Of a stretch of 38,962 nt of DNA, positions 3,459 through 37,343 are shown piece after piece. A program made the translations under genes and the position numbers. Position 1 is the stretch's first letter. Each line of letters starts with the position of its first letter. Location: positions 1-38,962 of the forward strand of contig DNWZ01000159.1 of the NCBI GenBank assembly GCA_003506095.1. Reading direction: 5' to 3'. The DNA comes from Planctomycetaceae bacterium. GTDB lineage: Bacteria; Planctomycetota; Planctomycetia; Pirellulales; Pirellulaceae. The notes under the pieces are model-generated. The model made no database searches and was not told where the DNA came from. It saw only the letters and a list, made by a program, of their open reading frames with translations.

Positions 3459-6074
3459 TTATTCCAACGAAGCCAGTCCCCCGCGTTCTACAATCTTAAG
3501 CAGTTCTTGTCCGCTCATGCGATGTGCCGCGTCGTGTGGGCATGCGTAAACGCAGCGGGGCTTGCCGTCAATGCTGCGGCAGAGGTCACAAGTTGTCGCC
3601 TTTTGTTGAATGACGGGTATCTTGCGTCCATTGCGTTCTTCAAAAACTGCCTTTCTTTTACCAGTCTTCGGATCAGCTTCTATCTTTGGAAATCCGTGCA
3701 TATTGATGTTTCCATAAGGGCAGTTTTGTGCGCAAAGCCCACAACCGATGCAATAATCCTCGATCTTGATCTCCAGTGAATTGCCATCTCGGTGAATGGC
3801 GTCAACAGGGCAACCGACTAGGCAATACGGGTCCATGCAGGAGCGACAACTGCTGGCGACCAGAAATTTATCAAAACGCAAACCGTCTCTCACAAGTCGT
3901 GTCACGCCGCCATGCGTGTCTGCGCAGGCTTTGGTGCATTCATCACACCGCGTGCATTTTTCTAAATCAAGAACCAGCAGGCTTTGCCCTAAAAACAAGC
4001 CTTGATCAATAAAGTCGTCTGTGCCGATCGCGTCTAACTGCTTTCGAATCGCGTAATCGCGTGCCAAGATCTCGTCGGCGACTTTCAGCATCGGTTCGAC
4101 AAGTGCAGGCAACTTTCTCAGCAATTCATGAAAGTCAGCCGCCTTGATTCGAATCAATTCGACATGGTCCAACGCCGCACAGGATGCTGTACGACGTCCG
4201 TCCGGGATCTTGTTGCGTCCAGGCACTTGGTCCGAATTGACCAGTTTTGTCAGTAGTCCGATTTCGCCAAAATAGCTACCCGGCGAAACATAGCCCATCA
4301 CGCGATCCGAAACGCCATACTTCTGGGTCACTTTGATGAAACCGAGCCGATTGATGTAAATCGCATCAGCGATCTCGCCTTGACGATAAATCGTTTGGCC
4401 AGGCTCAACGGTCAGCAACTCGACTCGATTGTTTAAAAAGTCGGCTGCTTCCTGACGCTGGTCCTCGGACAATCCTTGAAAGATTGGCAAAGATGTCAGT
4501 TGTCCGCGCAAGGTTCGCTTGCGATAAACCTGGTCCAAGAACTCGCGACTGATCGCATTTCTTTGAATCATATAAAGCACGTTGCGGCGGATCTCCACAA
4601 CCACCGAGTTTTCCTTGGCCACCACCGTTGCAGATCGCGGATATCGGTTCAAACAGGTCATTTCACCGATGATTACGTCTTCCGGGGTGATTTCAATCAC
4701 CGTGTCGTCTGACAATTCTGCGCCGTGCATGTCGCTCAATCGGGCCACGGTGGAATGTTTGGTTGCTCCACCCCCACCACCAAGCCAACGTAAAAGACCG
4801 AATCCTAATGGTTTTTTTGGTTTACCACGCTTGGATTGCAAAGTGACCGTGAAACGACCACTGACAATGACAAACGCCGTCGAACCGTACTCACCTTCGC
4901 GACACAAAACCTCTCCGGCTTTGAGTTGTCGAACCACAAAGGCGCCTTGATTGAACTGCACAAACTTTGGTGGCAATCCGGCAAACAATGGAATTGCTAA
5001 AATCTCACGCACATTCGTCGGCTTGTCGTGGCCTTCGGCCACCGCGGTTGATGCCAAGTATGACGGACGAAATTCGAGTGCACCGGTCGGACAGGAAATC
5101 ACACATTCGCCGCAGGAAACGCACGAACTTTTGCCCATGGGGTCATCAAGATCGAATCCGATATGGCTTTGGTAGCCCTTGCCAAAACGACCGATTACAT
5201 GATTCTCTTTCACATAGTTGCAGCCCCGTGAACACCGTCCACAAAGGATGCATTCTTCCAGATTGACAACAACCATTCGACTTGATTTATCAATCTGTGG
5301 CGGTGGCGGCGATTCAATCAGCCCGCTCAGATTCTTGGCCAGCATTGTCTTGGAGAATCGATTGGTCGATAGATTCAATCGCGATGCCAACGCGGCCAAC
5401 TCATTGCCATCCTCCGCCAACCGGGGCGACATCCGCCCCGTCGCGTTTATCGCCACCATTTCACTGCTACGTTGGGCCGGCAAATGATCGGCAACCAAAA
5501 GCTCCGTCAATAAACTGCATGCCTTCTTCACCCGCTGCGCAGCCGCAGGATCCGCCTTGCTGTTGATCGTATGGACTGCCATGCCATCGGAAACATGCTG
5601 AACGCACGAAGGGACAAGTTTGCTGCGGACGCCACGGCGAGTCTGCTCGACAGCCTCAACCATACAGACGCGACAGACGCCAACTGGTGGAAGGTGTTCG
5701 CGATGGCAAAGCGTTGGGATCGGATGGGCGTCACCAGCCTGCTGCACAAAAGCTTGGGTTGCAGCATCATAGATGGTGGTCGCGCGCGGAATCGCATTCC
5801 CCTCGGAGTCTCGTTGAATCGAGCCTTGAGAATCTCGCAGCGGTACCGCCTTTTTAACGACGACCTGGCGACCATCAATTGTTAAGCATACGTCGGTATC
5901 AAAGTCATCCGCAGTCGCTCGGCGAACCCGAATTAGGCGTCCATCAACGCTACGCGCAAACAGTCCCTCGTCGTCGTATGCCTTGCTTGTCTCGTCGCGA
6001 TCTGCAACCGCTGCGGCAAAGTTAATCGTTTGAGTCGCTAGGAGACGCTGGTCGCTAAAGTCTTTATTTTCCAT
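3459..6074 (-). CDS. Multidomain Fe-S protein: NuoG/HoxU-like N-terminal 2Fe-2S plus 4Fe-4S region, two tandem cyclic-nucleotide-binding (CNB) domains, and a C-terminal DmsB/HybA-like multi-4Fe-4S ferredoxin domain
   Basis: 2Fe-2S-like 'LCHREHLPPVGVCRVCMVE...PSCVQHV'. 4Fe-4S sites 'CILCGRCSRGC' and 'CVSCGECVISCP'. CNB1 phosphate-binding cassette 'IGEMTCLNRYPRSATVVA'; CNB2 'FGEIGLL...RRTASCAAL'. C-terminal sites 'CTRCDECTKAC', 'CRSCMDPYCLVGCP', 'CIGCGLCAQNCP' and 'CDLC...CVYACP'. I prefer the ATG at 6074 (MENKDF), preceded by GGGAGA, over the track start at 6116. It overlaps the upstream stop by 11 nt. Confidence 0.85.
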   Translation of the reverse strand: MENKDFSDQRLLATQTINFAAAVADRDETSKAYDDEGLFARSVDGRLIRVRRATADDFDTDVCLTIDGRQVVVKKAVPLRDSQGSIQRDSEGNAIPRATTIYDAATQAFVQQAGDAHPIPTLCHREHLPPVGVCRVCMVEAVEQTRRGVRSKLVPSCVQHVSDGMAVHTINSKADPAAAQRVKKACSLLTELLVADHLPAQRSSEMVAINATGRMSPRLAEDGNELAALASRLNLSTNRFSKTMLAKNLSGLIESPPPPQIDKSSRMVVVNLEECILCGRCSRGCNYVKENHVIGRFGKGYQSHIGFDLDDPMGKSSCVSCGECVISCPTGALEFRPSYLASTAVAEGHDKPTNVREILAIPLFAGLPPKFVQFNQGAFVVRQLKAGEVLCREGEYGSTAFVIVSGRFTVTLQSKRGKPKKPLGFGLLRWLGGGGGATKHSTVARLSDMHGAELSDDTVIEITPEDVIIGEMTCLNRYPRSATVVAKENSVVVEIRRNVLYMIQRNAISREFLDQVYRKRTLRGQLTSLPIFQGLSEDQRQEAADFLNNRVELLTVEPGQTIYRQGEIADAIYINRLGFIKVTQKYGVSDRVMGYVSPGSYFGEIGLLTKLVNSDQVPGRNKIPDGRRTASCAALDHVELIRIKAADFHELLRKLPALVEPMLKVADEILARDYAIRKQLDAIGTDDFIDQGLFLGQSLLVLDLEKCTRCDECTKACADTHGGVTRLVRDGLRFDKFLVASSCRSCMDPYCLVGCPVDAIHRDGNSLEIKIEDYCIGCGLCAQNCPYGNINMHGFPKIEADPKTGKRKAVFEERNGRKIPVIQQKATTCDLCRSIDGKPRCVYACPHDAAHRMSGQELLKIVERGGLASLE

Positions 6075-7884
6075 CGTATTCTCCCTGCGGTTGATTGCCC
6101 GATGATTGCGGACCATTGTTCGGACACTTCGACGCGACTAAGTGCGGAAAAAATCGAAACAACGATCGCACCGGATTGCTCGCCACCTGTCCCAATCCAC
6201 AAATGCTGGTCGCTTCCATCACTTCACTGAGTTCACGGACAGTGCTGCTGAAGATCGGAAGCTCGCTCAGTGCAACTCGCCCGGCGTCGATCCCGGTTGC
6301 CATCGCCGTGATTTTTTCGGATCCGATTCGACAAGGGACGCACTTGCCACACGATTCGTTACGGAAGAAACGACTGCAAGCTAATGCTTCGCTGACCAAA
6401 TCGGCTTGGTCGTTGTAGACCACGATTCCCGCCCCCAACATATAGCCCATCGTGCGCGACACGTTGATATCCATTGGCAAGTCGCGAATGTCGATTGTGG
6501 TCGTGCCTTCTGGGACAAACCGTTTTGCAAAGGATTGATTAAGCTCGGATACCGGGATTTTTGCGGGCCACAGACCGCCTGACGGCCCCGAAAGGGCCAC
6601 TGCCGCAATCAAACCGCCACGCATACCACCTGCGTATTCGTCGATCAGTTCTCCTAAAGTGATTCCGGTCGGAACCTCATACACACCCGGGCAAACGACA
6701 TCGCCACTGATCGAAAACAAGCGGCGACCTCGGGCTAAGTCTTTCTGGCCAGCGAGATCGAAAGGGCCAGTCTTTTGCCCCTCATCGCGGTACCATTTTC
6801 CGCTGTCACGATCAAGAATGGCTGGCACCCATGCAAACGTCTCAACATTGTTTAGCAGGGTCGGCTGATTCTGATATCCGTTTGTCATCAATTCGGGAGG
6901 TCGGTTTCTCGGCTCAGCCCTTTTGTCTTCCATCGCCTCGATCAATGCCGTCTGCTCACCACAGATGTAACCGCCCGGGCTCACAAAAACTTCTAAAAAG
7001 AACTTCTCCCCAGATCCAAGAATATTTTGACCCAGGATGCCCAGGTCATTCGCACGGTTAATCTCTGCTTGAAGGCGTTTAATCTGCTCGGGATACTCGT
7101 GACGAACATAAATCCAACCGCGTTGGGCACCGACCACCAAGCCGCCCAGGATCATCCCCTCGATCACGAGGTGGGGGAATCGCAGCAAAATCTCTCGATC
7201 TTTAAACGTTCCCGGTTCACTCTCGTCCGCATTGCAAACCAAGTATTTCGCCTTTCCCTCGGCCGCTAGAACATCGCCCCACTTAAGATACGTTCTGCCA
7301 CCGGCACCGCCCATTCCAAGCAAGCCAGCAGTCTCTAATGCCTTCAGCACACCCGCAGGATCGGGCGCTTTGAGATAGTTGCGAACTAATCGATAGTCGG
7401 GTGAGACCTGGGACGATCGATCGTAGATCTCCATTTGCCACTTCTCGGTTCCCTTGACGGTTCCCCTGGCATCGGAATCGGCCGATGGCCGGAGGCCACT
7501 GGTCGACTGGTCGATTGCCAAACGGAGCTCTTCTTCGGATCGCCCAGCAAATAATCTTTCATTGATCATTGCTGCAGGCGCACGATCACAGCGTCCCAGG
7601 CAGGATACCCCGCAAACTTCAACAGCCTCGCCGTAACGTTGTTTAGCATACTTTTCGATTCGTTCCGTCATCGTAACCGCGCCACCCCGATGACAGCTCA
7701 TGTCGCGACAGATGTGTACCGTAACTTTTGGCGGTGGCGTCGTTCGAAAATGAGGAAAGAATGAAACCAAAGATTGCACGCGATGCAGTGGTACATTCAA
7801 TACTTCAGCAACCTTCGTGAGGTCTTCACGAGTCAAATAGCCGCCGCGATTCTTCTGAAAACGATACAGCGTAGGAATAATCAT
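6064..7884 (-). CDS. NuoE-NuoF fusion (NAD(P)H-binding flavoprotein of complex I / HoxF / FdhB type: thioredoxin-like 2Fe-2S domain plus FMN/NADH/4Fe-4S domain)
   Basis: NuoE-like 'HICRDMSCH...CGVSCLGRCDRAP'. NuoF motifs 'GLLGMGGAGGRTYLKW', 'YLVCNADESEPGTFKDREIL', 'GGYICGEQTALIEAMEDKRAEPRNRPP' and the N3 cluster 'ESCGKCVPCRIG'. The ATG at 7884 lies 6 nt after the upstream stop. Confidence 0.9.
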   Translation of the reverse strand: MIIPTLYRFQKNRGGYLTREDLTKVAEVLNVPLHRVQSLVSFFPHFRTTPPPKVTVHICRDMSCHRGGAVTMTERIEKYAKQRYGEAVEVCGVSCLGRCDRAPAAMINERLFAGRSEEELRLAIDQSTSGLRPSADSDARGTVKGTEKWQMEIYDRSSQVSPDYRLVRNYLKAPDPAGVLKALETAGLLGMGGAGGRTYLKWGDVLAAEGKAKYLVCNADESEPGTFKDREILLRFPHLVIEGMILGGLVVGAQRGWIYVRHEYPEQIKRLQAEINRANDLGILGQNILGSGEKFFLEVFVSPGGYICGEQTALIEAMEDKRAEPRNRPPELMTNGYQNQPTLLNNVETFAWVPAILDRDSGKWYRDEGQKTGPFDLAGQKDLARGRRLFSISGDVVCPGVYEVPTGITLGELIDEYAGGMRGGLIAAVALSGPSGGLWPAKIPVSELNQSFAKRFVPEGTTTIDIRDLPMDINVSRTMGYMLGAGIVVYNDQADLVSEALACSRFFRNESCGKCVPCRIGSEKITAMATGIDAGRVALSELPIFSSTVRELSEVMEATSICGLGQVASNPVRSLFRFFPHLVASKCPNNGPQSSGNQPQGEYDGK

Positions 7885-7890
7885 GGTGCT

Positions 7891-10800
7891 TTAATTCGAC
7901 TCCACGGATTCGGATAACCGCTTGGTTAACTCGCGAAACTTAGCTATGTCAATGAATTCCGGGCTGTCGATGACCCATTCGCCAATCCGATCTTGGACGC
8001 GACGAAACTCAATCGCTTCGGCCATTTTGCCGAGGTAGGCTGCAACCTCATGTCGGTCGCTCGGAACTCTTCGGTCTCGAATCAATGCATGCGAACGGAG
8101 GTACCAATGTGACGCCTGATACCACGCACCGGTGATCGATGAATTGACACCCAACGGCGCAGCTGCTGGGGAATGGAAACGCGCCAATGATTTCATTTCG
8201 ACTTGCAGTGGACGCGGATCGGCCAGACGCGACAAGTATCTGCCGATGATCTCTTCGATACTAACAGTGGCTGGTTTTATTTGTTTGATATCCACAGCAC
8301 GCAGTCGTATCGTGTCCAGTGCTTTATTCATTGCAACGACATCCGACGGCCCTAAATATGCAAGCCCGTGCTCAATAAACTCAGCCAAAAGCGAGGGATG
8401 GGGCAACGGGTGTCCGTAGCTAGGGCGAACCGCAAAATTGGTGATCTTCAAATGATGATGGCATGCAAAGCAATCAAAGTCTGCAAGCTCCGGCCAAACA
8501 CTCGCCGTTAAAGAGGCGTCCGGCGATTCCAGCTGGGAATCGATTCGCCGCTGCGCCGTCAGCTGAATCGCGGCACGAATCGCAATCGCCTGAGCCGCCA
8601 AGAAACGTCGCAATTCAGACTCGTCCTCTAGCGACGGCAAACCATCTTGCGAACGATCCTCCACTGCATGCCGTGGCAGGCGACGCAAGGCAGACCAACC
8701 TTCAAATCGGAGTGCTGGGTGCCCCGCAGCAATCATGTCATGATTCATATCGCGAACCATTCCATCAGCGACCCGTGATCCCACGTGACAACGGACGCAG
8801 CCATCGATTCGTTTAACAAAATTTCGTGTTTCCCTCATCGAGCCCGAAACGGTCCAATCGTCACGAAGATGCGACTGAACCCAATTGCTTGCTGGTCCAT
8901 GGCACGCTTCGCACGAGACGCCTGCAAGGGCTTGGTGAGTCACTGTTTCGTTGTCCGTGCTGGCATTTTTTTCGTCGCTGGGCACGGCGAGTTCGGCCTG
9001 CATGGCGCCCTGAGCATCGATTGGGGAATGACAACTGTTACAGCGAGATCGCAGCACCTGTTCGAAGCGATCGGGTGAATCTCTAGCCCCGGGGTCCAGC
9101 GTCCAAACAATGCGTTTGCTCAATTGGCCTGAAAGGGTTAGCCCGGCGCGCGCGTGTGGGTCGAATGCTTCAAAAACGCTTTGACTGCTGGTCCAATCGG
9201 GATGGCTTCCGATAGCGCCGCTATGGCAGGTGCTGGTTCCACACGAGTCACTGCCGATCCACCGACCAGCAGATGACGTTAAACTCGAATGGCTTGAAGT
9301 CGCCGGTGGTTGTTTAGTGCCTGGCGACTGTGCTGATTGAGTGTTGACCAGGGATATGTCATGAATGCCGCCTTTGTCGTCCTGAGATTCAGAATCTAAC
9401 AGGCTTGCTTGCACCGGCGTTTGGATTGGCGATGTAGATCCATAAGAATGATAATCATGGCATGTTGTGCATCGGTCTGGCGCGTGATCGGATAAGCCGC
9501 CAAAGAGAGCTGCATGCGACTGGTTATTCGTAGAATTGGCTTCTTGCTGCGAGGCACGATGGCAGGGAGTGCATGAGGCGATCCCGAGTATCATTTTAAG
9601 ATCGCCTGGATTGAGCGTGATCAGTGGGTCCGGTGCAGGCTCGGTCGATGTAAAGTCTGTTTGCGCAGATTGCCCGGCTCCCGTGGTTTTTGCCAGCCAG
9701 CTTCGCAGCGCAACTCGTTCGGGGTCGGAGATCGACTGGGCATTCGGATCGGCTTGCGGATGACAGGCGATGCAAGTAACGCCGCGGTGCGCGCTATGAT
9801 CAAATCGTCCGGCACGCAGTCGAGGCTGAGGAATCCTCGGAACTGGCGCCGCTATTTCAACGTCTGTATTGATGTGACAAACACGACACTGTTGTGCAAC
9901 GCGGCTCAGCAGTAGTTCGGTGCGCTGGGCCCGCCCGTTTTCTTCTAGCGATTGGTCGTTTAAAGGTTGACGACTGCTAGGCGGGCTTGCATTAGAGCCT
10001 GGGACGCGGATCGGAAAACCGTCCGATTTCCAAAGCTGATCGCCCGTCAATTGACTAGCAGCCAACTGGCCCGAAATTGAATCTCGCATTGACGGCACCG
10101 CGACGCCGTGGGGGACGGCCCACTGGCCTTGGCGCTGGCCAGGAAGGGTTAAAGGATGGCAAGCAGCACAATGTTGGGTGTACTTAACCGGTGATGAACT
10201 TCGTCCCCATGCGTACTCACCCGACCGCTGAAGCCCCAATGATGACGATTGGAACTCATGGCAATCTGCGCATTGCAGTTGGACTGCTGCATCCAACGAT
10301 TGTCCGGGCCTTTGGTATTTTTCAACAAACTCTTTGGGCAATCGATCCAGTCGCATAGCACCTCGCTGGCCGGGCATGACCTGCCCCGGATTCATATGCA
10401 GGGCATGGTCAAACTCAATTCGTGGTGCATCCGCATTCTCTGGGTTAAGCTTTTGCAGTGAAGCAAAATCGCTGTGATCGGCCAGTGAAAACTGAGATAC
10501 ATTTACCGGCGGCTGCGAATCCGATTTTGTCGCACAAAACGCGGAAGTCTTTTCGTGGCACGAGACGCAAGCGTGGTTGAACGTGGGGATCAATTGACGA
10601 TCCCGTCCCAAGTGCTCGTCATGACAAACCGCACATCGTTGGTCTGCCAGCTTGCCAGCATCATTTAAAGCTGCGACATGAGGACCAACATTCTGATGAC
10701 AACTCTGGCATTTACTCGCTGTCGACCTGACCGCAGTGGAAGGTTCGATATGCCACGCGTCCGCAGCGATCGGCACGAAGTCAACATGACAGGCAGAGCA

Positions 10801-11031
10801 TTTTTGCTCAATCGACATGTGTGCAGTTGAAATGGGGCCAGTGCTCAAGTGTGATTGGCCAGCTGGGGCTAAGCCAACCCACGCTAAATAACAACCAGCG
10901 ATCACAATTGCAGCGGCTGTTGCGAGCCAACGCCAATAATAAGTCGAACTACGATACTTGTGGTAATCCAGTCGGATTCGCTGGGCGCGTGTCTTGCCGG
11001 TGTACTCGGCGGGGTCGATCTGGTTTGACAT
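7891..11031 (-). CDS. Membrane-anchored multihaem cytochrome c (14 CxxCH plus 1 CxxxxCH, 15 predicted haem sites)
   Basis: N-terminal anchor 'YYWRWLATAAAIVIAGCYLAWVGLAP'. Haem motifs in order: CSACH, CQSCH, CAVCH, CVSCH, CADCH, CAACH, CRVCH, CIACH, CTPCH, CTTCH, CGTSTCH (9223-9243), CNSCH, CEACH, CVRCH, CFACH. The C-terminal roughly 450 aa is paralogous to the two cytochromes at 14.5-18.2 kb. Confidence 0.9.
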   Translation of the reverse strand: MSNQIDPAEYTGKTRAQRIRLDYHKYRSSTYYWRWLATAAAIVIAGCYLAWVGLAPAGQSHLSTGPISTAHMSIEQKCSACHVDFVPIAADAWHIEPSTAVRSTASKCQSCHQNVGPHVAALNDAGKLADQRCAVCHDEHLGRDRQLIPTFNHACVSCHEKTSAFCATKSDSQPPVNVSQFSLADHSDFASLQKLNPENADAPRIEFDHALHMNPGQVMPGQRGAMRLDRLPKEFVEKYQRPGQSLDAAVQLQCADCHEFQSSSLGLQRSGEYAWGRSSSPVKYTQHCAACHPLTLPGQRQGQWAVPHGVAVPSMRDSISGQLAASQLTGDQLWKSDGFPIRVPGSNASPPSSRQPLNDQSLEENGRAQRTELLLSRVAQQCRVCHINTDVEIAAPVPRIPQPRLRAGRFDHSAHRGVTCIACHPQADPNAQSISDPERVALRSWLAKTTGAGQSAQTDFTSTEPAPDPLITLNPGDLKMILGIASCTPCHRASQQEANSTNNQSHAALFGGLSDHAPDRCTTCHDYHSYGSTSPIQTPVQASLLDSESQDDKGGIHDISLVNTQSAQSPGTKQPPATSSHSSLTSSAGRWIGSDSCGTSTCHSGAIGSHPDWTSSQSVFEAFDPHARAGLTLSGQLSKRIVWTLDPGARDSPDRFEQVLRSRCNSCHSPIDAQGAMQAELAVPSDEKNASTDNETVTHQALAGVSCEACHGPASNWVQSHLRDDWTVSGSMRETRNFVKRIDGCVRCHVGSRVADGMVRDMNHDMIAAGHPALRFEGWSALRRLPRHAVEDRSQDGLPSLEDESELRRFLAAQAIAIRAAIQLTAQRRIDSQLESPDASLTASVWPELADFDCFACHHHLKITNFAVRPSYGHPLPHPSLLAEFIEHGLAYLGPSDVVAMNKALDTIRLRAVDIKQIKPATVSIEEIIGRYLSRLADPRPLQVEMKSLARFHSPAAAPLGVNSSITGAWYQASHWYLRSHALIRDRRVPSDRHEVAAYLGKMAEAIEFRRVQDRIGEWVIDSPEFIDIAKFRELTKRLSESVESN

Positions 11032-11061
11032 TGTAACGAATCACCGACAACCGAAAGGCAA

Positions 11062-12063
11062 CTACCAATAACGAAGCGCAAATACAATGTGCGCGAGAAG
11101 AAGCACGCACAGTCCGACGGAAAGACCGATGTGATACGGCAGCCACATGTGCAGCCAGTGGTGGAGGCGTTTTTGTAAACTGAATTGCCGCCTCTGGTCG
11201 GTCAATCTTTCCAACGGGCCGATCACACGCTCGGCATCAGCCGAACAGGCCTGTCGCAACATCCCGAACCAGCCCGAAGCACGAATCGGGTCGCCGAATA
11301 CCCGGCCGGATGTTACACCATCCAGCAGGAACGGCTTCAATTCATCATAGGCATTCCATAACGAACGCGAGTCGTCTTGTTCGGCGGTGGCAGCCCTGCT
11401 TTCCTGATAACCCTCCCGTCGTCGTCCAGCTTCCCGGGGTGCGCCAATAACAATCATTCGTGTCATTTGCACTTCGGGGTCGCTGCCAAGTAATTCACGG
11501 AATCGCGTCATTTCGCCAATGCCTAATTGCTGCGTCATCACCGCATCGCGAGTGCCACAGGTTGCATTGAGCAACTGATCCGCTTCCAGGACAATCGATC
11601 GAGAAATATTTTCGATCTCACCATAAATCGTTTCACCTGGGACCTGTTTCAGCAACATTCGTGGGATCATGTTCTGTAACGCTAGGCCGATCGCCCCGCT
11701 GGCCACCGTCAACACCAAGGCCAAAATCAAAAGTGTCGACAACCATCCGCCCCAGTGGAATCCGGAATGAACAATCGCAATCGGCAAGCAGACGATTCCG
11801 AACCAAATGTGAGCGGAAAGCCAATACTTGACGCGAACCAATCTCATTCGCCGCAGTGCTTTGCGTGGCCACAGCCCCATCTCGAAGAAGATGATCATTG
11901 CCGCTACCGACCCGAGAACCAATCCTGGCAGACTGCCACCACCTAGCAATCTACCTGCGAGCCAAGATTCCGCGAGGTACCAAGCAGTTAGGCCCAAAAA
12001 AAGTATCATCGCTAGCGTTATCGCAACGGCATGCATTCGCCAACTAGATCGATCAATCAACAT
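11062..12063 (-). CDS. Integral membrane protein with about 5 TM helices and His-rich helices; possible b-haem or other electron-transfer membrane subunit
   Basis: Hydrophobic segments 'AVAITLAMILFLGLTAWYLA', 'GLVLGSVAAMIIFFEMGLW', 'WLSAHIWFGIVCLPIAIVHSGFHW', 'LSTLLILALVLTVASGAIGLAL' and a C-terminal 'HHWLHMWLPYHIGLSVGLCVLLLAHIVFAL'. The ATG is at 12063, and a 30-nt spacer separates it from the cytochrome gene. Confidence 0.7.
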   Translation of the reverse strand: MLIDRSSWRMHAVAITLAMILFLGLTAWYLAESWLAGRLLGGGSLPGLVLGSVAAMIIFFEMGLWPRKALRRMRLVRVKYWLSAHIWFGIVCLPIAIVHSGFHWGGWLSTLLILALVLTVASGAIGLALQNMIPRMLLKQVPGETIYGEIENISRSIVLEADQLLNATCGTRDAVMTQQLGIGEMTRFRELLGSDPEVQMTRMIVIGAPREAGRRREGYQESRAATAEQDDSRSLWNAYDELKPFLLDGVTSGRVFGDPIRASGWFGMLRQACSADAERVIGPLERLTDQRRQFSLQKRLHHWLHMWLPYHIGLSVGLCVLLLAHIVFALRYW

Positions 12064-12206
12064 GCGGTTTGCAACTAAGAAAAAGGCTTCGTGTCACCGC
12101 TTGGCCAGTGATGAGCTCGGTCTAACAATTAGCTTATCATCTCGCAGGTTCCCAATTCAACAGAATCATTACAAGATTACTGTTTTCCCTCTAAGAACCT
12201 CTCCGG

Positions 12207-12258
12207 AAAGGGGGCTGACCCTTTGAAGGCAACTCGCCGGAGAGGGTCAGCCCCCTTT
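12207..12258 (-). terminator. GC-rich perfect 16-bp inverted repeat (AAAGGGGGCTGACCCT / AGGGTCAGCCCCCTTT) with a 20-nt loop; possible terminator or attenuator between the cyclase gene and the downstream operon
   Basis: The arms at 12207-12222 and 12243-12258 were read directly. The right arm contains the last codons and the TGA (12247-12249) of the cyclase gene. Only a short T-run follows on either strand. Confidence 0.35.
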
Positions 12259-14241
12259 TCGAATAGGCTCTAAATCCCAAATCGTATCCGTCTGGCTGGA
12301 AGGATCCGTTAGCGCCCTGGCCGACTCAACCAACAGACGCGCACTGGGGCGATCATCCTTATAGTTTTGAACTAATCGCCCTAATCGATGAACCGATTCA
12401 CCTGGCCTGCCTGCCTCATAGTCAGCCAATGCAGATTCATATTCATCTTTCAGCAGCAACCATTGTGGGGTTGCAATTGAAACACATTGATAGACCTCGA
12501 CAGGTTGCCGGATTCCACCAAGTCGAATCCTTGACAGCCGGCGAAGGTTTTCGCGTGTTGACAAGCTTCCCACCGTTGCTGCGGACACGATACATTGCAC
12601 TCCCATTTGCTTACAGGCCCCCTGCAAGCGACTTCCGATGTTCACCGTGTTTCCCAGGACTCCGTATTTGAACTTCAGCCTGCTTCCAACATTACCGACC
12701 CGTGCCGGGCCGCTATTGATCCCGATGCCTATATCCAGTTCAATCCCCAACTGTTCACGCCATTTGTCTCTAAGGTCATCAGTAACAACCAGCATTTGTC
12801 GTGCTGCTGCGATCGCGCGTGCGGCATGGTCAGCCTGCGCTTCAGGCGCTCCCCACATCGCAAAAAGCTCGTCGCCAACATAGTCGACCAATACACCATC
12901 CTCGTCGACCACACATTGGCTTAAGTCGGAAAGGACATCGTTGATCAGTGCGATTGTCCGTTCCGGACTAAACATCTCGGAAATGGCACTGAACCCGCGC
13001 ACATCACAAAATAAAACCGAAACATCTGTATCCCGACCGACCAGCATTTCAGGACGTTTGGCCAACATCGAGGCGACACGAGGTGAGAAGAATTCGGATA
13101 GGTTGGCATGCGATCGCTCAGCCGCTTGCCGTGCCATCCCTACTGCGACCGCCGCAGCCAGTGTTTCAGCCAATAGACCTTCCAGCTCGGTGACTCGGTG
13201 GTCTCGCCCTGCACGCTGAACCCATCGCTCACCATATAAAACCGCAGCAATGCGGCCGTGTCGGTCGATCACTGGCGCAGCGACCACACTGTGGGATGGC
13301 CCAAACGCTTGATCGGGAGCTTCGCGTCCAAGGTCAAAAATTTGCGTTGTCGTCAATTCGAGAACCCGATTGAGAACCGTTGAATTGACTGTTGGCCTTT
13401 GTTTTTGCGAGACCGGTTGGGAAAGTTGCTCACCGCGCGAGACCCATTTGACCCGTCGTCCGCTTAACGTCCCCGGGACTCCTCGAATCTCGGACAGGCC
13501 GCCACTTGGATCAGACAGCCCCGTTGGCAAATCGGCAATCTCAAAGACAAGTGAACTCAATACCGACTGACTGTTAGCAGTATTGGAAGGCATTGCGCTG
13601 GATTGCTGAGGAACCATCAATACAGCACGATCTAAGTAGTCGTCCGATCCAGCCGCTTCGGTGACGGCCCGCAACGCCTTCCTCAGCAGGCGAACCACGT
13701 TCAAATGATCCAGCGGCCCTTGCCCCCCGTCTAGAGGGCGAATCAACAGTGCCATGCTCGACTGAATATCAAGCTCACCCAACGTGTCGCGACGCGAAAC
13801 CGCACTGTCCCCTCGCGGCAGCGTGTCTCTGCGAGCATAAATGCCATTGGGTTGATCGTTGTCCCATTGTGGGGGTGAGCCCGACGTTTCCGGAACAATT
13901 CTTAAACAATGGCTTCGATACAGAAGGATTTCAGTTGCGGCAGTCAATTTCAACGACTTGGAACCACCGGGCGGCACGCGACACTCCGGATCGGCAACGC
14001 AAACGTCACGAGTCCGATGGATATTGTCGATTCGAACCGTATCGACATCTAAAGCGTGAATCACAAACCAACGTCGAGGAATCGTCGTTATATCTGTCGA
14101 CGCGATTAGAAATCGATTCGCCTCCCCCTCCCGTGGTTCGCCTGCCTGCTGGCGACCGATTTCTAAGTGAGAAATCAATTCGACCCGGCTAAGCTCTGTA
14201 ATGTCTTGAAACAACTGAACTAGAATGCCCAAACCTTCCAC
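12247..14241 (-). CDS. Class III adenylate/guanylate cyclase with N-terminal FHA-like and central GAF-like regions
   Basis: Cyclase homology domain (about 12472-13029): 'VSVLFCDVRGFSAISEMF', 'LVDYVGDELFAMWGAP', 'IGIGINSGPARVGNVGS', 'KYGVLGNTVNIGSRLQG'. The GAF-like stretch is 'VVAAPVIDRHGRIAAVLYGERW'. The start codon at 14241 is GTG, so the exact start is uncertain. Confidence 0.88.
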   Translation of the reverse strand: MEGLGILVQLFQDITELSRVELISHLEIGRQQAGEPREGEANRFLIASTDITTIPRRWFVIHALDVDTVRIDNIHRTRDVCVADPECRVPPGGSKSLKLTAATEILLYRSHCLRIVPETSGSPPQWDNDQPNGIYARRDTLPRGDSAVSRRDTLGELDIQSSMALLIRPLDGGQGPLDHLNVVRLLRKALRAVTEAAGSDDYLDRAVLMVPQQSSAMPSNTANSQSVLSSLVFEIADLPTGLSDPSGGLSEIRGVPGTLSGRRVKWVSRGEQLSQPVSQKQRPTVNSTVLNRVLELTTTQIFDLGREAPDQAFGPSHSVVAAPVIDRHGRIAAVLYGERWVQRAGRDHRVTELEGLLAETLAAAVAVGMARQAAERSHANLSEFFSPRVASMLAKRPEMLVGRDTDVSVLFCDVRGFSAISEMFSPERTIALINDVLSDLSQCVVDEDGVLVDYVGDELFAMWGAPEAQADHAARAIAAARQMLVVTDDLRDKWREQLGIELDIGIGINSGPARVGNVGSRLKFKYGVLGNTVNIGSRLQGACKQMGVQCIVSAATVGSLSTRENLRRLSRIRLGGIRQPVEVYQCVSIATPQWLLLKDEYESALADYEAGRPGESVHRLGRLVQNYKDDRPSARLLVESARALTDPSSQTDTIWDLEPIRKGG

Positions 14242-14582
14242 CCTCTTCGAAGAATCACCACGCTAAACCGACAGAATCAGAAAAAACGCTTCGTTTTAGC
14301 AATAATTTCGTTGATCATCGATGTTCAGTTTGAATGCTTCTCCTAGCTTAACTAAACTGAGTTGTCGGATCCGCCATGCCACATTAGTAATGCGCCATTT
14401 TTATTCGATTTGTTTTTTTGTCAGATAAAGCCCGATTCGACGGGCGTTTGCTCCAAACCATTCTTGGGATATCGAATAATTAAAGCGTCTATCATCCGTT
14501 GTGCATCGCCCGTCTGTTTTGAGTGTCATTTCGTCAAGTTGTTTCGACAGGTTGTTGGGTCTATCAATTGCAAGCGTATAGC

Positions 14583-16367
14583 ATGAGCCAGTGCAACCAA
14601 GAATCGACCAACTGCTCGATTGACTCAATCCTATCTTGTTTTTTGCTAGAACCGTGGGCAGAGCTAACTCGATTGAGGTCGACAGATCGATTGTGCCGCC
14701 CGAGGGTCGTGATCGCTTGCTTGCTGATGCCTCTGTTTTTGTTGTTCGCTGAATCGGTCGCTCACGGCCAGAATCCGCACAGCTCTACTGTAGCATCTTC
14801 GGTGGTGGCGCTTTATCGAGTCGATCTTGAGCCGCTTGCCGCAACCAGTTGTTCGGCTTCGGCATGCCATGGAGGTCCCCGGCCAGGGATCGTCCAGCCG
14901 TCTTCCGCTGGTCAGTCCGCTTATGGACTGTGGCTTGAACGCGACCCGCACGCTCGTTCTTGGCAAACCATTTGCAGCTCTGAAAGCGTTGCAATGATGA
15001 CACGCTTGGGCATCTTACGTGGTGAACAAATTGTTGACCAAGCTGGTTTTGACAATTGCATGGCTTGCCACAACAGCCATCGCAGTGAGTCCGGGCCTGC
15101 GGCCACCACGACTGATCAGCGCGGCTTATCGATAAGCGATAATCGTCGAGCCCCGTCGTCTTCAGAGTTTCGATTTCCTCGGCATACGGAAGGAGTCGGG
15201 TGTGCAGGCTGCCACGGTCCGGCAGAACAGTGGGTGAACGAGCACTATTTGGCATCTTGGCGACCTCAAGACGCGATTGAGCAGGGCTTCGTTCCCAATG
15301 ATGATTTGTTAACACGAGCGAGAATGTGTGCATCTTGCCATGTTGGTGATCACGATCGTGATATGAATCACGACATCATTGCCGCTGGTCACCCCGCACT
15401 GCGATTCGAGATGGCATCCCACCACAGCCGATTGCCGAAACATTGGCGCGATGATCAAGCCGGTGACCTTGCTGGCTTTGAGGCTAAGCTTTGGGCCGCC
15501 GGGGCTGTGGCGTCCGCCGATGCCTGGCTAGCGTTGCAACAAGGTCGCGCTGGCGGAAAGACGGCGGTCAGCACATGGCCCGAATTCGCCGCCAATGATT
15601 GTTCATCATGCCACCAGTCGCTGCGTCTCAACAGCGATCGCGATCCGCTATCGGATCCCCATCGCCGCGGTGCCGCTAAGATCGCTCGTTGGGACGTGGG
15701 CGCGTTGCAGTTGTGGGCCAGGGCGAGTCACGATCAATCCGACGATGACTATCGCGTCACCCCATCCATGCTGCTGCACCAACTCGATTTGGTACAGGCG
15801 ACCATTGAGGTGATGCACTCACCCGATCGCGCGGCATTCGGTCGGGTGTCAATGGATTTGAGACAATCGTTACCCAAGCGGTTTCAATCGCAAGCTTTTG
15901 CTCCCAACACGCGTGGCAATCCCAGTCTCGGTTCTTACAGCACGCGGCCGCCAGATCCGATTTTTGCTCCGCAGTTGAGCGATTTACTCATGCGATCGGC
16001 CGGTTCGGATATCGCAACAGAAACCTGGGAAGCCGCAGGCCAGGTTTACCTTTTGATCGCAGCATCTCGCTACGAGTGGACAAAGTCCAATGGAAGCCAA
16101 TTGCATTCGCTCGCCGGATCCATTCGTCGCGGATTGTCGCTGCCACCGGAAATCGATTCTCCTCGCTATTCGCTCTCATCTCCGTTGGGCTCGGAACTGA
16201 CACGCGAACAGATTCGCCAACTGGTTGAACAAGTTCTTCGTACGTTAGACTCGACGAAGCCATCACGTCCTCATTCGGTCGAATCATTGCTCAATCACCT
16301 CACGCCTGCCGCTGTCGATAGGCGACCGGCTTTAATCAAGGATGCGTCGCATGCCAGCGTCCGCTAA
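14583..16367 (+). CDS. Secreted pentahaem cytochrome c, paralogue of the C-terminal module of the 15-haem protein
   Basis: Signal-like 'RPRVVIACLLMPLFLLFAESVAHG'. Haem sites CSASACH (CxxxxCH, 14850-14870), CMACH, CAGCH, CASCH, CSSCH. Family motif 'CHVGDHDRDMNHDIIAAGHPALRFE'. The track start at 14523 is GTG; the first ATG is at 14583. Confidence 0.85.
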   Translation: MSQCNQESTNCSIDSILSCFLLEPWAELTRLRSTDRLCRPRVVIACLLMPLFLLFAESVAHGQNPHSSTVASSVVALYRVDLEPLAATSCSASACHGGPRPGIVQPSSAGQSAYGLWLERDPHARSWQTICSSESVAMMTRLGILRGEQIVDQAGFDNCMACHNSHRSESGPAATTTDQRGLSISDNRRAPSSSEFRFPRHTEGVGCAGCHGPAEQWVNEHYLASWRPQDAIEQGFVPNDDLLTRARMCASCHVGDHDRDMNHDIIAAGHPALRFEMASHHSRLPKHWRDDQAGDLAGFEAKLWAAGAVASADAWLALQQGRAGGKTAVSTWPEFAANDCSSCHQSLRLNSDRDPLSDPHRRGAAKIARWDVGALQLWARASHDQSDDDYRVTPSMLLHQLDLVQATIEVMHSPDRAAFGRVSMDLRQSLPKRFQSQAFAPNTRGNPSLGSYSTRPPDPIFAPQLSDLLMRSAGSDIATETWEAAGQVYLLIAASRYEWTKSNGSQLHSLAGSIRRGLSLPPEIDSPRYSLSSPLGSELTREQIRQLVEQVLRTLDSTKPSRPHSVESLLNHLTPAAVDRRPALIKDASHASVR

Positions 16368-18180
16368 TCAGTTTCGATGGGGTCTTATGGCTGTCATCGC
16401 ATGCCCAGTGCGAGATTCAATCGTTTTGGGACTTACTCTGATTGCACTCCTTGCGATGAATGTCGCTCAAACATCAGCGCAAGTAATCGACGATGATCCG
16501 GTTTCCGAAGCATGGCGTGGCTTTCCTGAAACGTTTGCATGCCAGTCATGTCACGCAAATGCTGAGCCGATCGCTATCACCAGTTTTGCCGACCCACGAC
16601 AGCGTCTGCGCGGCGACGTTTCGCAACAAAACGAAATGTTTCGTTGGGTTCGTGATGACAAGCACGCCATCGCACGCCTACGCGTCGAACCGCTGCGTCC
16701 AGTGGAAGTCCAAGCCGAACGGCAGAAGGTTGCTGATACATTTCGCTTCACCGATCCCAGTGGGCCCGATAAATGGGTTGGTCAAAGCAACGTGCTCAGT
16801 CGTCGGATCTGCGACGCGCTGGGCTTCGATGTGGATCGTCCAGATGGCTACCAGAAGTTTGCTGAGTCCTGCTTGACCTGTCATGGCGGTTATGATCCAT
16901 CAGCAGGGCCTCAGCCAGCATTCGCAAAATCGGCTGACTTGAAAGAGTTGCAACCGGGAATCAGTTGCCTCGCTTGTCACCAGGAAACTGGTGGTGTGTC
17001 CGGTGGAATTGCAAAAGATGCATGGGTCTTAACGCATGCCTCGTTGACGGATCAAAAAAAGGGCTGGCGACTCTTGCCCCCAGAGGCGAAATCAGCGCAG
17101 GGAATGCGTGACCTTACAACAACTTCCAAGCAAGTGGATCTGTGTATCGACTGTCACGTCGGAAATGTTTCTAAGGGGATGTTCGTCAACCATGCGATGT
17201 ATGCCGCTGGCCACCCGCCATTGCCAAACTTTGAGATGGAAACTTTTTGTCGCTCAATGCCCCGGCATTGGCGTACGGAGTCTGAGCAATTGCAGGCATT
17301 TGAAGAAGCGAATTACCCCGGCAAAGAAGCTTACTTTGCGGTCAACTTTCCTGAGTTCACCACTCGCCTCACAGCCTCAGGCAGTTCACTTTCCGATGTC
17401 CCATGGGACACGCGTCGATCGCTTGTCGGGGCGGTCGCGGTCAGGCGTCGGATCGCTGAAATGCTCGTCCAGGCTGCAAGCTCGGATAATCTTTGGGGCG
17501 ATTACTCATTCTACGATTGCGGTGCATGCCACCATGAGTTGCGACGACCAAGTCTTCGTCAATTGCGAGGTTTTCCCGGTGCGCCGGGACGCCCTCGATT
17601 ACACGAGTGGCCAGATATCATCTTGGAAACCGTTGCACCCTCAAGCACCCCAGCGGCTGCCCAAAAGAAGTTGCTGCAATTAGTATCCGCAGTGCCGTTT
17701 GGGGATAAGCTCGCTTGCGGCAAAGCAGCTGACGAACTGTTCTCGTCAATGAACGAACCCGTGAAGAGAATTGAATCCGAGTTCGGAACCCGGCGGCAGC
17801 ACGCTTGGACGCTGATCGAACGTTTAAGTCGTGTTGGTCAAGCAGAGCTCCTCGACTACGCCACCGGTCGACAAGTGATGTGGTCGATCTTGGTTGCAGT
17901 CGATGAATTGAGCAGGGCAAAAGATCTGCCAGCAGAAGATGCCCCGAAGCTCCAGGCAATTACTGCGGTTACTGACGCTTGGCGAGTCCCCAGCACCAAC
18001 CAAGGCCGATTGGTATCTACTACGTCCGTTGGCATTGCAACTGAATTGCCAGCCGGTCGCGGAATGTTTATCTTCCGAGAGAATCTTTATGAGGAACTGG
18101 AGCGTCGGGCAAACTACGAGCCTACTGCTCTGTATGAATCACTGCAGCGAATTCATCGAGCATTCATCCCGTCGCCCTAA
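16342..18180 (+). CDS. Secreted pentahaem cytochrome c, second paralogue
   Basis: Signal-like 'IVLGLTLIALLAMNVAQTSAQV'. Haem sites CQSCH, CLTCH, CLACH, CIDCH, CGACH. Family motif 'CHVGNVSKGMFVNHAMYAAGHPPLPNFE'. Possible ATGs are at 16342, 16351 and 16387; the first two overlap the upstream stop (16365-16367). Confidence 0.85.
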   Translation: MRRMPASANQFRWGLMAVIACPVRDSIVLGLTLIALLAMNVAQTSAQVIDDDPVSEAWRGFPETFACQSCHANAEPIAITSFADPRQRLRGDVSQQNEMFRWVRDDKHAIARLRVEPLRPVEVQAERQKVADTFRFTDPSGPDKWVGQSNVLSRRICDALGFDVDRPDGYQKFAESCLTCHGGYDPSAGPQPAFAKSADLKELQPGISCLACHQETGGVSGGIAKDAWVLTHASLTDQKKGWRLLPPEAKSAQGMRDLTTTSKQVDLCIDCHVGNVSKGMFVNHAMYAAGHPPLPNFEMETFCRSMPRHWRTESEQLQAFEEANYPGKEAYFAVNFPEFTTRLTASGSSLSDVPWDTRRSLVGAVAVRRRIAEMLVQAASSDNLWGDYSFYDCGACHHELRRPSLRQLRGFPGAPGRPRLHEWPDIILETVAPSSTPAAAQKKLLQLVSAVPFGDKLACGKAADELFSSMNEPVKRIESEFGTRRQHAWTLIERLSRVGQAELLDYATGRQVMWSILVAVDELSRAKDLPAEDAPKLQAITAVTDAWRVPSTNQGRLVSTTSVGIATELPAGRGMFIFRENLYEELERRANYEPTALYESLQRIHRAFIPSP

Positions 18181-23995: not shown

Positions 23996-24153
23996 CAGTG
24001 TCTCGCCTGCAGAAAGATCGATCGGAACCGTGTCATGCAACGGCTATGTCGGGTATCATGAAAAGGCGTGACGTATGAATTATTGAACGTCACCCATCAC
24101 TCATGCGCATCATGCTCTCGTCCAACCGCATCATAATGTCCGACGGTGTTATT

Positions 24154-37341: not shown

Positions 37342-37343
37342 CG

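Follow-up and report, generated by a model that had tools for sequence, protein, structure and literature searches.

The 38,962-nt stretch of DNA analyzed here (hereafter, the window; contig DNWZ01000159.1 of assembly GCA_003506095.1, Planctomycetaceae bacterium) was examined in the minus-strand interval 3459–14241, in which a class III nucleotidyl cyclase gene is followed by four co-oriented genes for redox proteins. These four genes probably encode a transmembrane NAD(P)H:multihaem-cytochrome-c oxidoreductase, i.e., a conduit leading from the reduced nicotinamide nucleotide in the cytoplasm to a periplasmic cytochrome, and we place moderate confidence in this reading. The cofactor sites and the topology were read from the sequence, and the joining of the four products into one wire was deduced from gene linkage, gene fusion, and analogy. 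An earlier note on this interval had proposed a cyclic-nucleotide-controlled module carrying electrons from NAD(P)H to the periplasm, and each computationally testable part of that interpretation came out favourably. The genes, with protein lengths in amino acids (aa), are listed below.

12247–14241, minus strand: class III nucleotidyl cyclase, 664 aa, GTG start
11062–12063, minus strand: membrane protein, 333 aa
7891–11031, minus strand: multihaem cytochrome, 1046 aa
6064–7884, minus strand: NuoE–NuoF fusion (NuoEF), 606 aa
3459–6074, minus strand: iron–sulfur (Fe-S) protein with cyclic-nucleotide-binding (CNB) domains (Fe-S/CNB protein), 871 aa counted from the second ATG

The cyclase and membrane protein genes are separated by 183 nt, after which the spacers are 30 nt, 6 nt, and an 11-nt overlap; these last three spacers and the five open reading frames (ORFs) agree with the earlier description. 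The longest ORF of the Fe-S/CNB protein begins at 6116, and the start giving 871 aa is the one called in a relative with 85% identity. The count of 15 haem motifs in the cytochrome was reproduced (14 CxxCH and one CxxxxCH), and no other complex I subunit and no hydrogenase or formate-dehydrogenase catalytic subunit was present in the whole window, as had been reported. The description of the membrane protein as His-rich was overstated, as it contains 9 His in 333 aa, but four of those His are invariant. The gene arrangement is far beyond chance, with the identical four-gene order occurring at 52 of 58 related loci.

In the proposed path, NAD(P)H would reduce the flavin mononucleotide (FMN) of the NuoE–NuoF fusion, and electrons would pass from the [4Fe-4S] cluster of NuoF to the HoxU-like [2Fe-2S] and two [4Fe-4S] clusters of the Fe-S/CNB protein, and from these to its C-terminal four-cluster polyferredoxin. 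The polyferredoxin would dock on the cytoplasmic face of the membrane protein, where electrons would move from a haem b held by His85/His311 on the cytoplasmic side to a haem b held by His99/His325 on the periplasmic side. The outer haem b would deliver them to the membrane-anchored 15-haem cytochrome, a decahaem part fused to a pentahaem part, and from there they would probably reach two divergently encoded pentahaem cytochromes and a further periplasmic or extracellular acceptor. Electrons would thus be exported from the cytoplasm to the periplasm without need for the quinone pool. No ion-pumping subunit is present; therefore, the route should dissipate rather than conserve energy, and the outward flow would be driven by the redox potential and the membrane potential. 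Such a dissipative route fits the reduction of external or periplasmic substrates, or redox balancing. As for the membrane steps, a four-cluster protein docks on a two-haem cytochrome b in Fdn-N, and electrons are transferred from flavin to two haems in NOX and MsrQ.

The crossing of the membrane had been named in the earlier note as the weak point, as the membrane protein would have to carry the electrons. This protein has five transmembrane (TM) helices, with a helical domain of approximately 170 aa between TM4 and TM5. H85 and H99 in TM3 and H311 and H325 in TM5 were invariant in 33 homologues, with a spacing of 14 within each pair, and the equivalents of the four His were invariant in 12 membrane-protein sequences spanning several phyla. 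Because the His pairs lie at i/i+14 on TM3 and TM5, the protein is predicted to be a two-haem cytochrome b. One side of the membrane holds the N-terminus, a strongly basic TM2–TM3 loop (WPRKALRRMRLVRVK), and the 170-aa TM4–TM5 domain; this side was taken as the cytoplasm according to the positive-inside rule. With this orientation, one haem could be ligated by H85/H311 toward the cytoplasm and another by H99/H325 toward the periplasm. The four invariant His fit two stacked bis-His haems b, and this pattern, together with the cytoplasmic loops and soluble domain, therefore answers the topology problem; from it, we infer a transmembrane two-haem electron conduit.

Haem b binding has been shown experimentally for DUF4405, which was compared with MsrQ (PMC11334425). 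Among the 33 homologues of the membrane protein, sub-threshold Pfam matches were obtained to DUF4405 (25 sequences), Ferric_reduct (10), and Ni_hydr_CYTB (5), all of which are two-haem cytochrome b families. The AlphaFold2 (AF2) model was all-helical, with a predicted local distance difference test (pLDDT) score of 84. The family comprised 4242 clusters in a library of 1.84 billion proteins, and the best 150 library matches provided no bridge to bona fide DUF4405 or ferric-reductase members. Variants of the protein with long inserts (500–860 aa) were considered as Rosetta-stone evidence and rejected, as they carried no fused redox domain and gave few, weak, sub-threshold, and unrelated matches.

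A membrane protein of this type might also be a quinone-reactive cytochrome b like FdnI, NarI, or CbcL. In that case, NuoEF and the Fe-S/CNB protein would form a non-pumping NADH:quinone reductase, and quinol would reduce the cytochromes through the same membrane protein. Where a four-cluster ferredoxin is known to be paired with a two-haem cytochrome b, as in Fdn-N, the path ends at a quinone site, and the weak matches of the membrane protein include Ni_hydr_CYTB, a quinone-reactive family. Moreover, the known inner-membrane routes of extracellular electron transfer are quinol oxidases (PMC6295460). However, no quinone-binding motif was identified in the membrane protein, and its closest, albeit weak, relatives are DUF4405 and Ferric_reduct, which pass electrons straight across the membrane. 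As a cytoplasmic donor and a periplasmic acceptor are coupled around one small membrane protein, a direct wire is also the simpler arrangement, and the quinone-coupled scheme was considered unlikely.

On the cytoplasmic side, the direct wire would begin with NuoEF, in which the domains 2Fe-2S_thioredx, Complex1_51K, and NADH_4Fe-4S were found with Pfam and NCBIfam; the NuoE/NuoF Pfam and TIGR matches fall below the equivalog cut-offs. The cofactor sites comprise a [2Fe-2S] site (C59, C64, C95, and C99) and a [4Fe-4S] site (C512, C515, C518, and C562), and these cysteine ligands and the FMN/NADH motifs were conserved in 54 orthologues. The nearest solved structures were HydB, Nqo1, HoxF, and FdsB, each with approximately 240–260 bits. 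NuoEF is predicted to be an NAD(P)H-oxidising FMN flavoprotein. Neither NuoEF nor the Fe-S/CNB protein has a TM segment, and no signal or Tat motif was seen when their N-terminal sequences were inspected by eye.

In the case of the Fe-S/CNB protein, Pfam and NCBIfam detected Fer2_4, 4Fe-4S domains, two cNMP_binding domains, and a HydN/HycB-like four-cluster domain, which are arranged in three segments.

5025–5777, minus strand: HoxU/NuoG-N-terminal-like module, with partial NCBIfam matches to HoxU, FeFe_hydrog_A6, and NuoG
4035–4967, minus strand: tandem CNB domains, CNB1 and CNB2, inserted between two Fe-S segments (Pfam cNMP_binding, E = 2.4e-27)
3459–3977, minus strand: C-terminal HydN/HycB-like polyferredoxin with 16 conserved Cys, corresponding to four [4Fe-4S] clusters, and partial NCBIfam matches to HydN, PadI, and FDH3-beta

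The HoxU-like module carries ligands for one [2Fe-2S] cluster (C123, C134, C137, and C157) and two [4Fe-4S] clusters (C275–C285 and C318–C328) and lacks the His-ligated N5-type cluster; its cysteines were conserved across 48 sequences, and its matches in the PDB were the N-terminal domains of the formate dehydrogenase alpha subunit and HydA. The CNB tandem resembles the tandem CNB of PKA/PKG regulatory subunits in the PDB search. Its phosphate-binding cassettes are GEMTCLNRYPRSAT and FGEIGLL...RRTAS, and the cassette cores GEM...PRSAT (CNB1) and FGE...RTAS (CNB2) were conserved in 48 orthologues; C391 and C474 in CNB1 were invariant. The presence of CNB domains on a redox protein, as remarked earlier, is a constant part of the family. 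The polyferredoxin has HycB3 and HycB as its nearest PDB entries and is predicted to be the docking partner of the membrane cytochrome b. Residues 356–871 of the Fe-S/CNB protein were 42% identical to a stand-alone 511-aa protein of locus L243 (BLASTP, E = 4e-135). The automatic names "NADP-reducing hydrogenase subunit HndC," "ferredoxin," and "nitrate/TMAO reductase-like tetraheme cytochrome" were rejected as indications of function, as no hydrogenase or reductase catalytic subunit is present.

A related arrangement was observed at another Planctomycetota locus, L137, where a different 953-aa protein with CNB and 4Fe-4S domains adjoins a glutamate-synthase-domain (FMN) protein (11054–15519, minus strand). 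A cyclase of the same family as that of the window lies beside it at 10001–11038. This suggests that polyferredoxins binding cyclic nucleotide monophosphates (cNMP) serve more than one flavoenzyme in Planctomycetota.

The periplasmic end of the path would be formed by the 15-haem cytochrome, which has a single N-terminal TM anchor, with every haem motif lying after the anchor. All 15 motifs were invariant in 18 homologues, and 16 further invariant His, distributed over the 1046 aa, are available in the sequence as distal haem ligands. Such a pattern is more in keeping with a bis-His electron wire than with a catalytic haem enzyme. An AF2 model of the cytochrome, based on the 18-sequence alignment, reached a mean pLDDT of 42.9 and was discarded, its quality being insufficient for a fold search. 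The cytochrome consists of two parts, and two pentahaem cytochromes (MHCu1 and MHCu2) are encoded divergently beyond the cyclase.

9442–11031, minus strand: N-terminal half, with conserved cytoplasmic tail RIRLDYHKYR, TM anchor at residues 35–58, and 10 CxxCH
7891–9264, minus strand: C-terminal half, pentahaem (CxxxxCH and four CxxCH; RDMNHDxIAAGHPALRF) with a helical non-haem domain
14523–16367, plus strand: MHCu1, divergent pentahaem cytochrome, with weak Pfam cytochrome matches and haem motifs
16342–18180, plus strand: MHCu2, second pentahaem cytochrome, with signal peptide and five CxxCH, conserved alongside MHCu1

The N-terminal half is homologous to stand-alone membrane-anchored decahaem cytochromes; residues 8–520 were aligned with a stand-alone 421-aa decahaem cytochrome from Wallbacteria at an hhalign probability of 99.9% (E = 7e-34). 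In most other Planctomycetota, the two halves are two genes, decahaem and pentahaem, for instance 557 + 478 aa and 500 + 518 aa in loci L001 and L002. Both MHCu1 and MHCu2 are paralogues of the C-terminal half, and MHCu1 cross-matched this region at many loci. As MHCu1 is divergent from and adjoins the membrane-protein gene at many loci, it is part of the conserved locus, although it falls beyond the interval of the earlier note. Its true start is likely Met69 (approximately position 14727), followed by a signal peptide. In the cytoplasmic tail that precedes the TM anchor of the 15-haem cytochrome (residues ~8–34, window 10930–11010), the motif R-[IL]-x-L-D-Y-[YHF]-K was noticed. It recurs in at least four stand-alone decahaem cytochromes, from Acidobacteriota, Wallbacteria, and one Planctomycetota metagenome-assembled genome (MAG), and may act as a peptide that docks on the membrane protein or the polyferredoxin.

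The synteny of these genes was determined by searching species-representative genomes with an alignment of the membrane protein. At least 573 loci were confirmed, and the best 80 of these at least 573 were characterised; all 80 were from Planctomycetota except two lake MAGs recorded as Candidatus Kuenenia. The synteny count was limited to the 58 Planctomycetota loci with at least 8 kb of downstream sequence. At 52 of the 58, the membrane protein, cytochrome(s), NuoEF, and Fe-S/CNB protein follow one another in this order on one strand, and at the same 52 loci, the HoxU–CNB–HydN architecture comes after NuoEF. The synteny across Planctomycetota that the earlier note had put forward as a check was accordingly established for the four redox genes. 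When the neighbours at 82 loci were clustered, cytochromes were found at 82, the membrane protein at 76, NuoEF at 65, and the Fe-S/CNB protein at 61. Only these four families were conserved; the next commonest neighbours, a giant LVIVD protein and the cyclase, occurred at 11 loci each. At locus L073, which carries the membrane protein and a cytochrome, the next gene encodes a DUF1570/peptidase-MA-like protein.

The core of the module was also found in other phyla. When plasmids were searched by tblastn with the CNB2–polyferredoxin part, Sphingobium megaplasmids were obtained, and plasmid pMSHV of S. herbicidovorans carries three adjacent co-oriented genes matching the core (B6S01_RS18455–18445). 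The first of these proteins, of 825 aa, combines a Pyr_redox_2/3 domain, binding flavin adenine dinucleotide (FAD) and NAD(P), with two CNB domains and a four-cluster ferredoxin, and its CNB–polyferredoxin part is 33–34% identical to that of the window over 89–91% of the query. The 296-aa protein is homologous to the membrane protein (hhalign probability 99.1%, E = 9.5e-19), and its His102/116 and His274/288 again show the spacing of 14. The 599-aa protein has a cytoplasmic FHA domain, one TM helix, and 10 CxxCH. A second search, anchored on the Sphingobium membrane protein, yielded 80 loci from Sphingomonadales, Gammaproteobacteria, Verrucomicrobiae, Acidobacteriota, Binatia, Wallbacteria, and others, and with the plasmid locus, 81 were counted. 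A CNB–polyferredoxin was present at 77 of the 81 and a decahaem cytochrome at 78, while a Pyr_redox domain, which is fused to the CNB protein in Sphingobium, was present at 62. Six of the 81 loci, from Verrucomicrobiae and Acidobacteriota, were of the type with NuoEF and HoxU, the genes being arranged as NuoEF, Fe-S/CNB, membrane protein, and decahaem cytochrome; the linkage of these genes thus extends beyond the phylum in another gene order. Several loci consist of the three-gene core only, with a 510-aa CNB–polyferredoxin and short gaps or overlaps between the genes.

Judged from these architectures, the constant part of the module is the CNB–polyferredoxin, the four-His membrane protein, and the TM-anchored decahaem cytochrome, and the NAD(P)H-oxidising flavoprotein is the component that is exchanged. 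The fusion of the Sphingobium CNB–polyferredoxin to a pyridine-nucleotide oxidoreductase domain gives independent support to NAD(P)H as the input, which the earlier note had assumed. The swap of the input module and this fusion are the strongest computational evidence for the NAD(P)H source and for a joint working of the components.

The same comparison bears on whether the genes are co-regulated parts of two systems rather than one wire. NuoEF and the Fe-S/CNB protein would then be a soluble diaphorase that senses redox state and cNMP and signals to, or reduces, ferredoxin-like partners, and the membrane protein and cytochromes would form a separate periplasmic redox system. In agreement with this, some genomes carry the membrane protein and a cytochrome without NuoEF or the Fe-S/CNB protein nearby, and the L137 protein, lying beside a glutamate-synthase-domain protein and a cyclase, indicates that other partners are possible. 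However, the CNB–polyferredoxin and the membrane protein stay linked at 77 of 81 loci in at least six phyla despite changes of gene order, and three-gene minimal units with short gaps or overlaps are hard to explain without a direct functional interaction. A division into two systems was accordingly regarded as improbable.

Other genes were observed near the module. Giant multihaem LVIVD beta-propeller proteins of approximately 1240–1430 aa lie near it in L169 (15623–19612, minus strand), L001 (1500–5798), and L002 (18391–21008). LVIVD multihaem proteins occurred at 45 of the 81 non-Planctomycetota loci and 11 of the 82 Planctomycetota loci, with 8 CxxCH in two examples from Acidobacteriota and Wallbacteria, and none is present in the window; such a protein may be the outer end of the electron path. 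FHA domains were seen in the cytoplasmic tail of the Sphingobium decahaem cytochrome (L169, 11877–13676) and, weakly, at the N-terminus of the Planctomycetota cyclase family (window ~13900–14241), and L001 has a Ser/Thr kinase gene near the module. The FHA domains and the kinase gene are hints of a phospho-threonine-dependent regulation.

The closest described system is the ptdABCDEFG operon (penta/tetra/deca-haem), which has been named and described bioinformatically only, occurs in Planctomycetes among other phyla, and is stated to have a "completely unknown" function (bioRxiv 10.1101/2023.11.21.568154). Ptd accessions, e.g., MBT5131319-25, are given in Table S7 of that preprint. Similar to the window, ptd includes a CNB and 4Fe-4S protein (PtdE), for which the window has two cNMP_binding domains and a four-cluster ferredoxin. 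Ptd has a ferric-reductase-like TM protein (PtdF), whose candidate counterpart in the window has the four invariant His and the sub-threshold Ferric_reduct/DUF4405 matches. The decahaem PtdG and pentahaem PtdA were likened by description to the decahaem half (10 CxxCH) and the three pentahaem modules of the window, and the role of the cytoplasmic NAD(P)-binding flavoprotein PtdC is filled by NuoEF. Moreover, the order PtdE-F-G is that of the CNB–polyferredoxin, membrane protein, and decahaem cytochrome at the non-Planctomycetota loci, and PtdC, PtdE, PtdF, and PtdG together correspond in architecture to the Pyr_redox, CNB–4Fe-4S, ferric-reductase-like, and decahaem proteins of the present comparison. 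Unlike ptd, the window has NuoEF and a HoxU-like Fe-S domain fused to the CNB protein instead of an FAD/NAD(P) oxidoreductase; its decahaem part is fused to a pentahaem part, its gene order is rearranged, and a cyclase is adjacent. No Pyr_redox domain, porin (PtdB), or tetrahaem cytochrome (PtdD) was recognised in the window. The pMSHV locus likewise differs from the window in the N-terminal fusion of Pyr_redox_2/3 to the CNB protein, the cytoplasmic FHA domain of its decahaem cytochrome, and a 1329-aa LVIVD multihaem protein nearby. The presumed homology between the window and ptd was deduced from matching architecture and gene order. In full-text literature searches, no description of the NuoEF-linked cluster was found, the ptd preprint being the only related description, and a 2025 review of the phylum makes no mention of cytochromes, NADH, or cyclic nucleotides.

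In NADPH oxidase (NOX), ferric-reductase-domain systems, and E. coli MsrQ with Fre, electrons pass from cytoplasmic NAD(P)H through flavin and two bis-His haems b to an acceptor outside. The haem b His pairs of these systems are 13–14 residues apart on two helices, similar to those of the window membrane protein. Unlike the window, these systems have no Fe-S wire, NuoF-type flavoprotein, multihaem cytochrome c, or CNB domains, and the window protein, with five TM helices, shows only sub-threshold similarity to them. The HoxEFU, FdsBG, and HydBC diaphorases share with the window a NuoE-like [2Fe-2S] domain, a NuoF-like FMN/[4Fe-4S] domain, and a NuoG-N-terminal-like Fe-S domain, whereas in the window, two CNB domains and a HycB-like polyferredoxin are added to the Fe-S chain, which is also linked to a membrane cytochrome b. 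Membership of the Hox/Hnd/Hyd/Fds group was rejected, as the FeFe_hydrog_A6, HoxU, and NuoG matches cover only the N-terminal Fe-S part, with 116 bits against a cut-off of 765 bits; no hydrogenase or molybdopterin catalytic domain was found in the window. In the case of complex I, the N-module (NuoE, NuoF, and the N-terminal part of NuoG) is present at the locus. Membership was rejected here as well, as NuoB, C, D, I, H, L, M, and N were missing from the window ORFs of at least 180 aa, and the Q-module and membrane subunits were not among the conserved neighbours at the 82 loci.

The Hmc and Tmc complexes of Desulfovibrio comprise a periplasmic multihaem cytochrome c (HmcA, 16 haems), a membrane cytochrome b, and a cytoplasmic Fe-S protein, and combine these components, which resemble those of the window, to move electrons across the membrane. 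They differ in an HdrD-like (CCG) cytoplasmic subunit, an NrfD-like subunit in Hmc, a usually inward flow, and the lack of NuoEF and CNB. Membership was rejected, as no CCG or NrfD-like domains occur in the five window proteins. The flow could nevertheless be reversed as in Hmc and Tmc, with a low-potential periplasmic or extracellular donor feeding the cytochromes and NAD(P)+ being reduced, and both the reversibility of NuoEF-type modules in NAD+-reducing hydrogenases and formate dehydrogenases and the inward transfer of Hmc/Tmc in sulfate reducers speak for it. However, inward transfer would run against the membrane potential and require a donor potential below about −320 mV, the window encodes neither a periplasmic hydrogenase nor a periplasmic formate dehydrogenase, and the hosts are largely aerobic heterotrophs (Sphingobium, Rhodopirellula, and Novipirellula), so that reverse flow has little to recommend it. 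With these comparisons, the most fitting description of the window is that of a NuoEF-fed, cyclase-associated variant of a scarcely described putative conduit and not that of complex I, a hydrogenase or formate-dehydrogenase diaphorase, or Hmc/Tmc.

As for regulation of this conduit, the CNB tandem would most likely make electron flow dependent on cyclic nucleotides, a role proposed because the tandem lies between the two Fe-S segments; in the lineage of the window, the ligand would be supplied by the adjacent class III cyclase. That cyclic nucleotides gate the conduit directly is a tentative proposal, in which we place rather low confidence. Equally speculative is the form such a switch might take, in which the ligand would reposition the HoxU-like segment relative to the polyferredoxin and toggle electron export within milliseconds. 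The ligand in Planctomycetota may be cyclic guanosine monophosphate (cGMP) or another product of the unusual Asp/Gly cyclase.

The cyclase matched Pfam Guanylate_cyc (E = 4.4e-20), with the catalytic domain at approximately residues 400–590 and a TPR-like tail. Its N-terminus is FHA-like, with an FHA match in 3 of 10 homologues, and its middle part is GAF-like with poor support; the GAF domain named in the earlier note was undetectable in the window cyclase and gave a weak match in 2 of 10 homologues (E = 0.011). The metal-binding Asp residues, D413 and D457, and N534 and R538 were intact and invariant in the alignment. The substrate pair, which in adenylyl cyclases is Lys/Asp or Lys/Thr, is Asp453/Gly527 here, and in the best solved relative, guanylyl cyclase Cya2 (2W01), D453 aligns to Glu and G527 to Gly. 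The Asp/Gly pair was present in 54 Planctomycetota cyclases, and the module-near cyclases of other phyla have an adenylyl-type pair, Lys/Thr or Lys/Ser.

The cyclase as a single query found no loci; hence, an alignment query was used. In this cyclase-anchored search, 11 of approximately 52 Planctomycetota loci adjoined module genes, and the cyclase lies directly upstream of the module in the clade of the window (L006, L007, L047, and L166–L168). In other phyla, a class III cyclase was located within 10 kb at 10 of the 81 loci, in four lineages (Gammaproteobacteria, Verrucomicrobiae, Acidobacteriota, and Sphingomonas). By our estimate, this exceeds chance, as about 20 kb of a 5–9 Mb genome corresponds to less than 0.5% per gene copy. 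From its distribution, the cyclase looks like a recurrent but facultative partner outside the conserved operon.

Several observations weigh against the conduit or its local control. With respect to the cyclase, it was found within 10 kb at 9 of the 80 Planctomycetota loci (approximately 11%) and was absent from approximately 89%; its best-scoring homologues lie away from the module, some in genomes with the module on another contig; and the hairpin and 183-nt spacer suggest that the cyclase is transcribed separately. The local second-messenger loop of the earlier note was therefore retained in part: the cyclase is not a member of the conserved operon, but its association with the module recurs in several phyla. 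Of the earlier interpretation, this cyclase link and the GAF assignment have the least support. In the case of the membrane protein, no Pfam family passed the threshold (best E 0.0025–0.037, below the gathering scores), the AF2 model had no Foldseek match in the PDB at E ≤ 0.001, and a PDB profile search gave no match; haem binding is read from the His pattern, and the protein may have a quinone site. The contact between the subunits was deduced from gene linkage and a single fusion, and the direction of electron flow and the CNB ligand are likewise inferred. Four loci (L073 and L079, both of Tundrisphaera, L083, and L004) carry the membrane protein and a cytochrome with no NuoEF or Fe-S/CNB protein within 10 kb, and the locus in the window encodes neither a terminal acceptor nor an outer-membrane porin or a catalytic haem.

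To our knowledge, the routes described so far by which respiratory electrons reach the periplasm or cell surface begin at the quinone pool. The module described here appears to start from NAD(P)H and to bypass the quinones via a small, predicted two-haem membrane protein of a family that has no annotation. Aerobes common in soil, freshwater, and the sea, e.g., Sphingobium and Sphingomonas, have the core as well, and the module is therefore possibly a widespread and overlooked means by which iron, manganese, humics, oxidants, or other extracellular or periplasmic substrates are reduced. Moreover, the CNB domains in the Fe-S subunit suggest that a second messenger acts on an electron-transfer protein directly and not on transcription. 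If true, this switch would be the first instance in which a second messenger gates a respiratory-type electron-transfer chain directly, and its conservation would extend from Planctomycetota to Proteobacteria, Acidobacteriota, and Verrucomicrobiota. The comparison also ties the Planctomycetota genes to the ptd operon and to tractable hosts (Sphingobium).

Two non-coding features were noted between the cyclase and membrane protein genes, and Rfam and tRNA scans of the window gave no matches.

12207–12258, minus strand: stem-loop with a 16-bp stem across the cyclase stop codon (RNA fold)
12064–12125, minus strand: conserved block of approximately 60 nt directly 5' of the membrane-protein start (alignment of the window with L166 and L167)

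The stem-loop is the hairpin that the earlier note had pointed out. Its folding energy was −45.7 kcal/mol (z = −3.46), and none of 200 shuffled sequences was equally stable. It has no U-tract and was not picked up by the terminator scan, and it may be a terminator or an RNA-stability element. A conserved regulatory element was ruled out, as the stem-loop is absent from the 85%-identical relative L166. The 12064–12125 block, which matched no Rfam family, is a candidate promoter or 5' leader of the four-gene unit.

Elsewhere in the window, the following minus-strand genes were observed.

20102–24040, minus strand: 1312-aa WD40 protein with no haem motif
26330–32944, minus strand: 2204-aa surface-type giant protein (FG-GAP, Big_9, DUF11, cadherin, and dockerin) with no haem motif
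33746–35341, minus strand: 531-aa protein with WGR and PARP catalytic domains, with no PADLOC match
35380–38897, minus strand: 662-aa reverse transcriptase (PADLOC RT_XIII, E = 3.6e-154) and an upstream 517-aa protein (SWIM_XIII, E = 4.5e-150)

According to the PADLOC matches, the last two proteins are a type XIII retron-like anti-phage pair. The WGR/PARP protein is encoded directly downstream of this pair and may be its effector or an unrelated ADP-ribosyltransferase.

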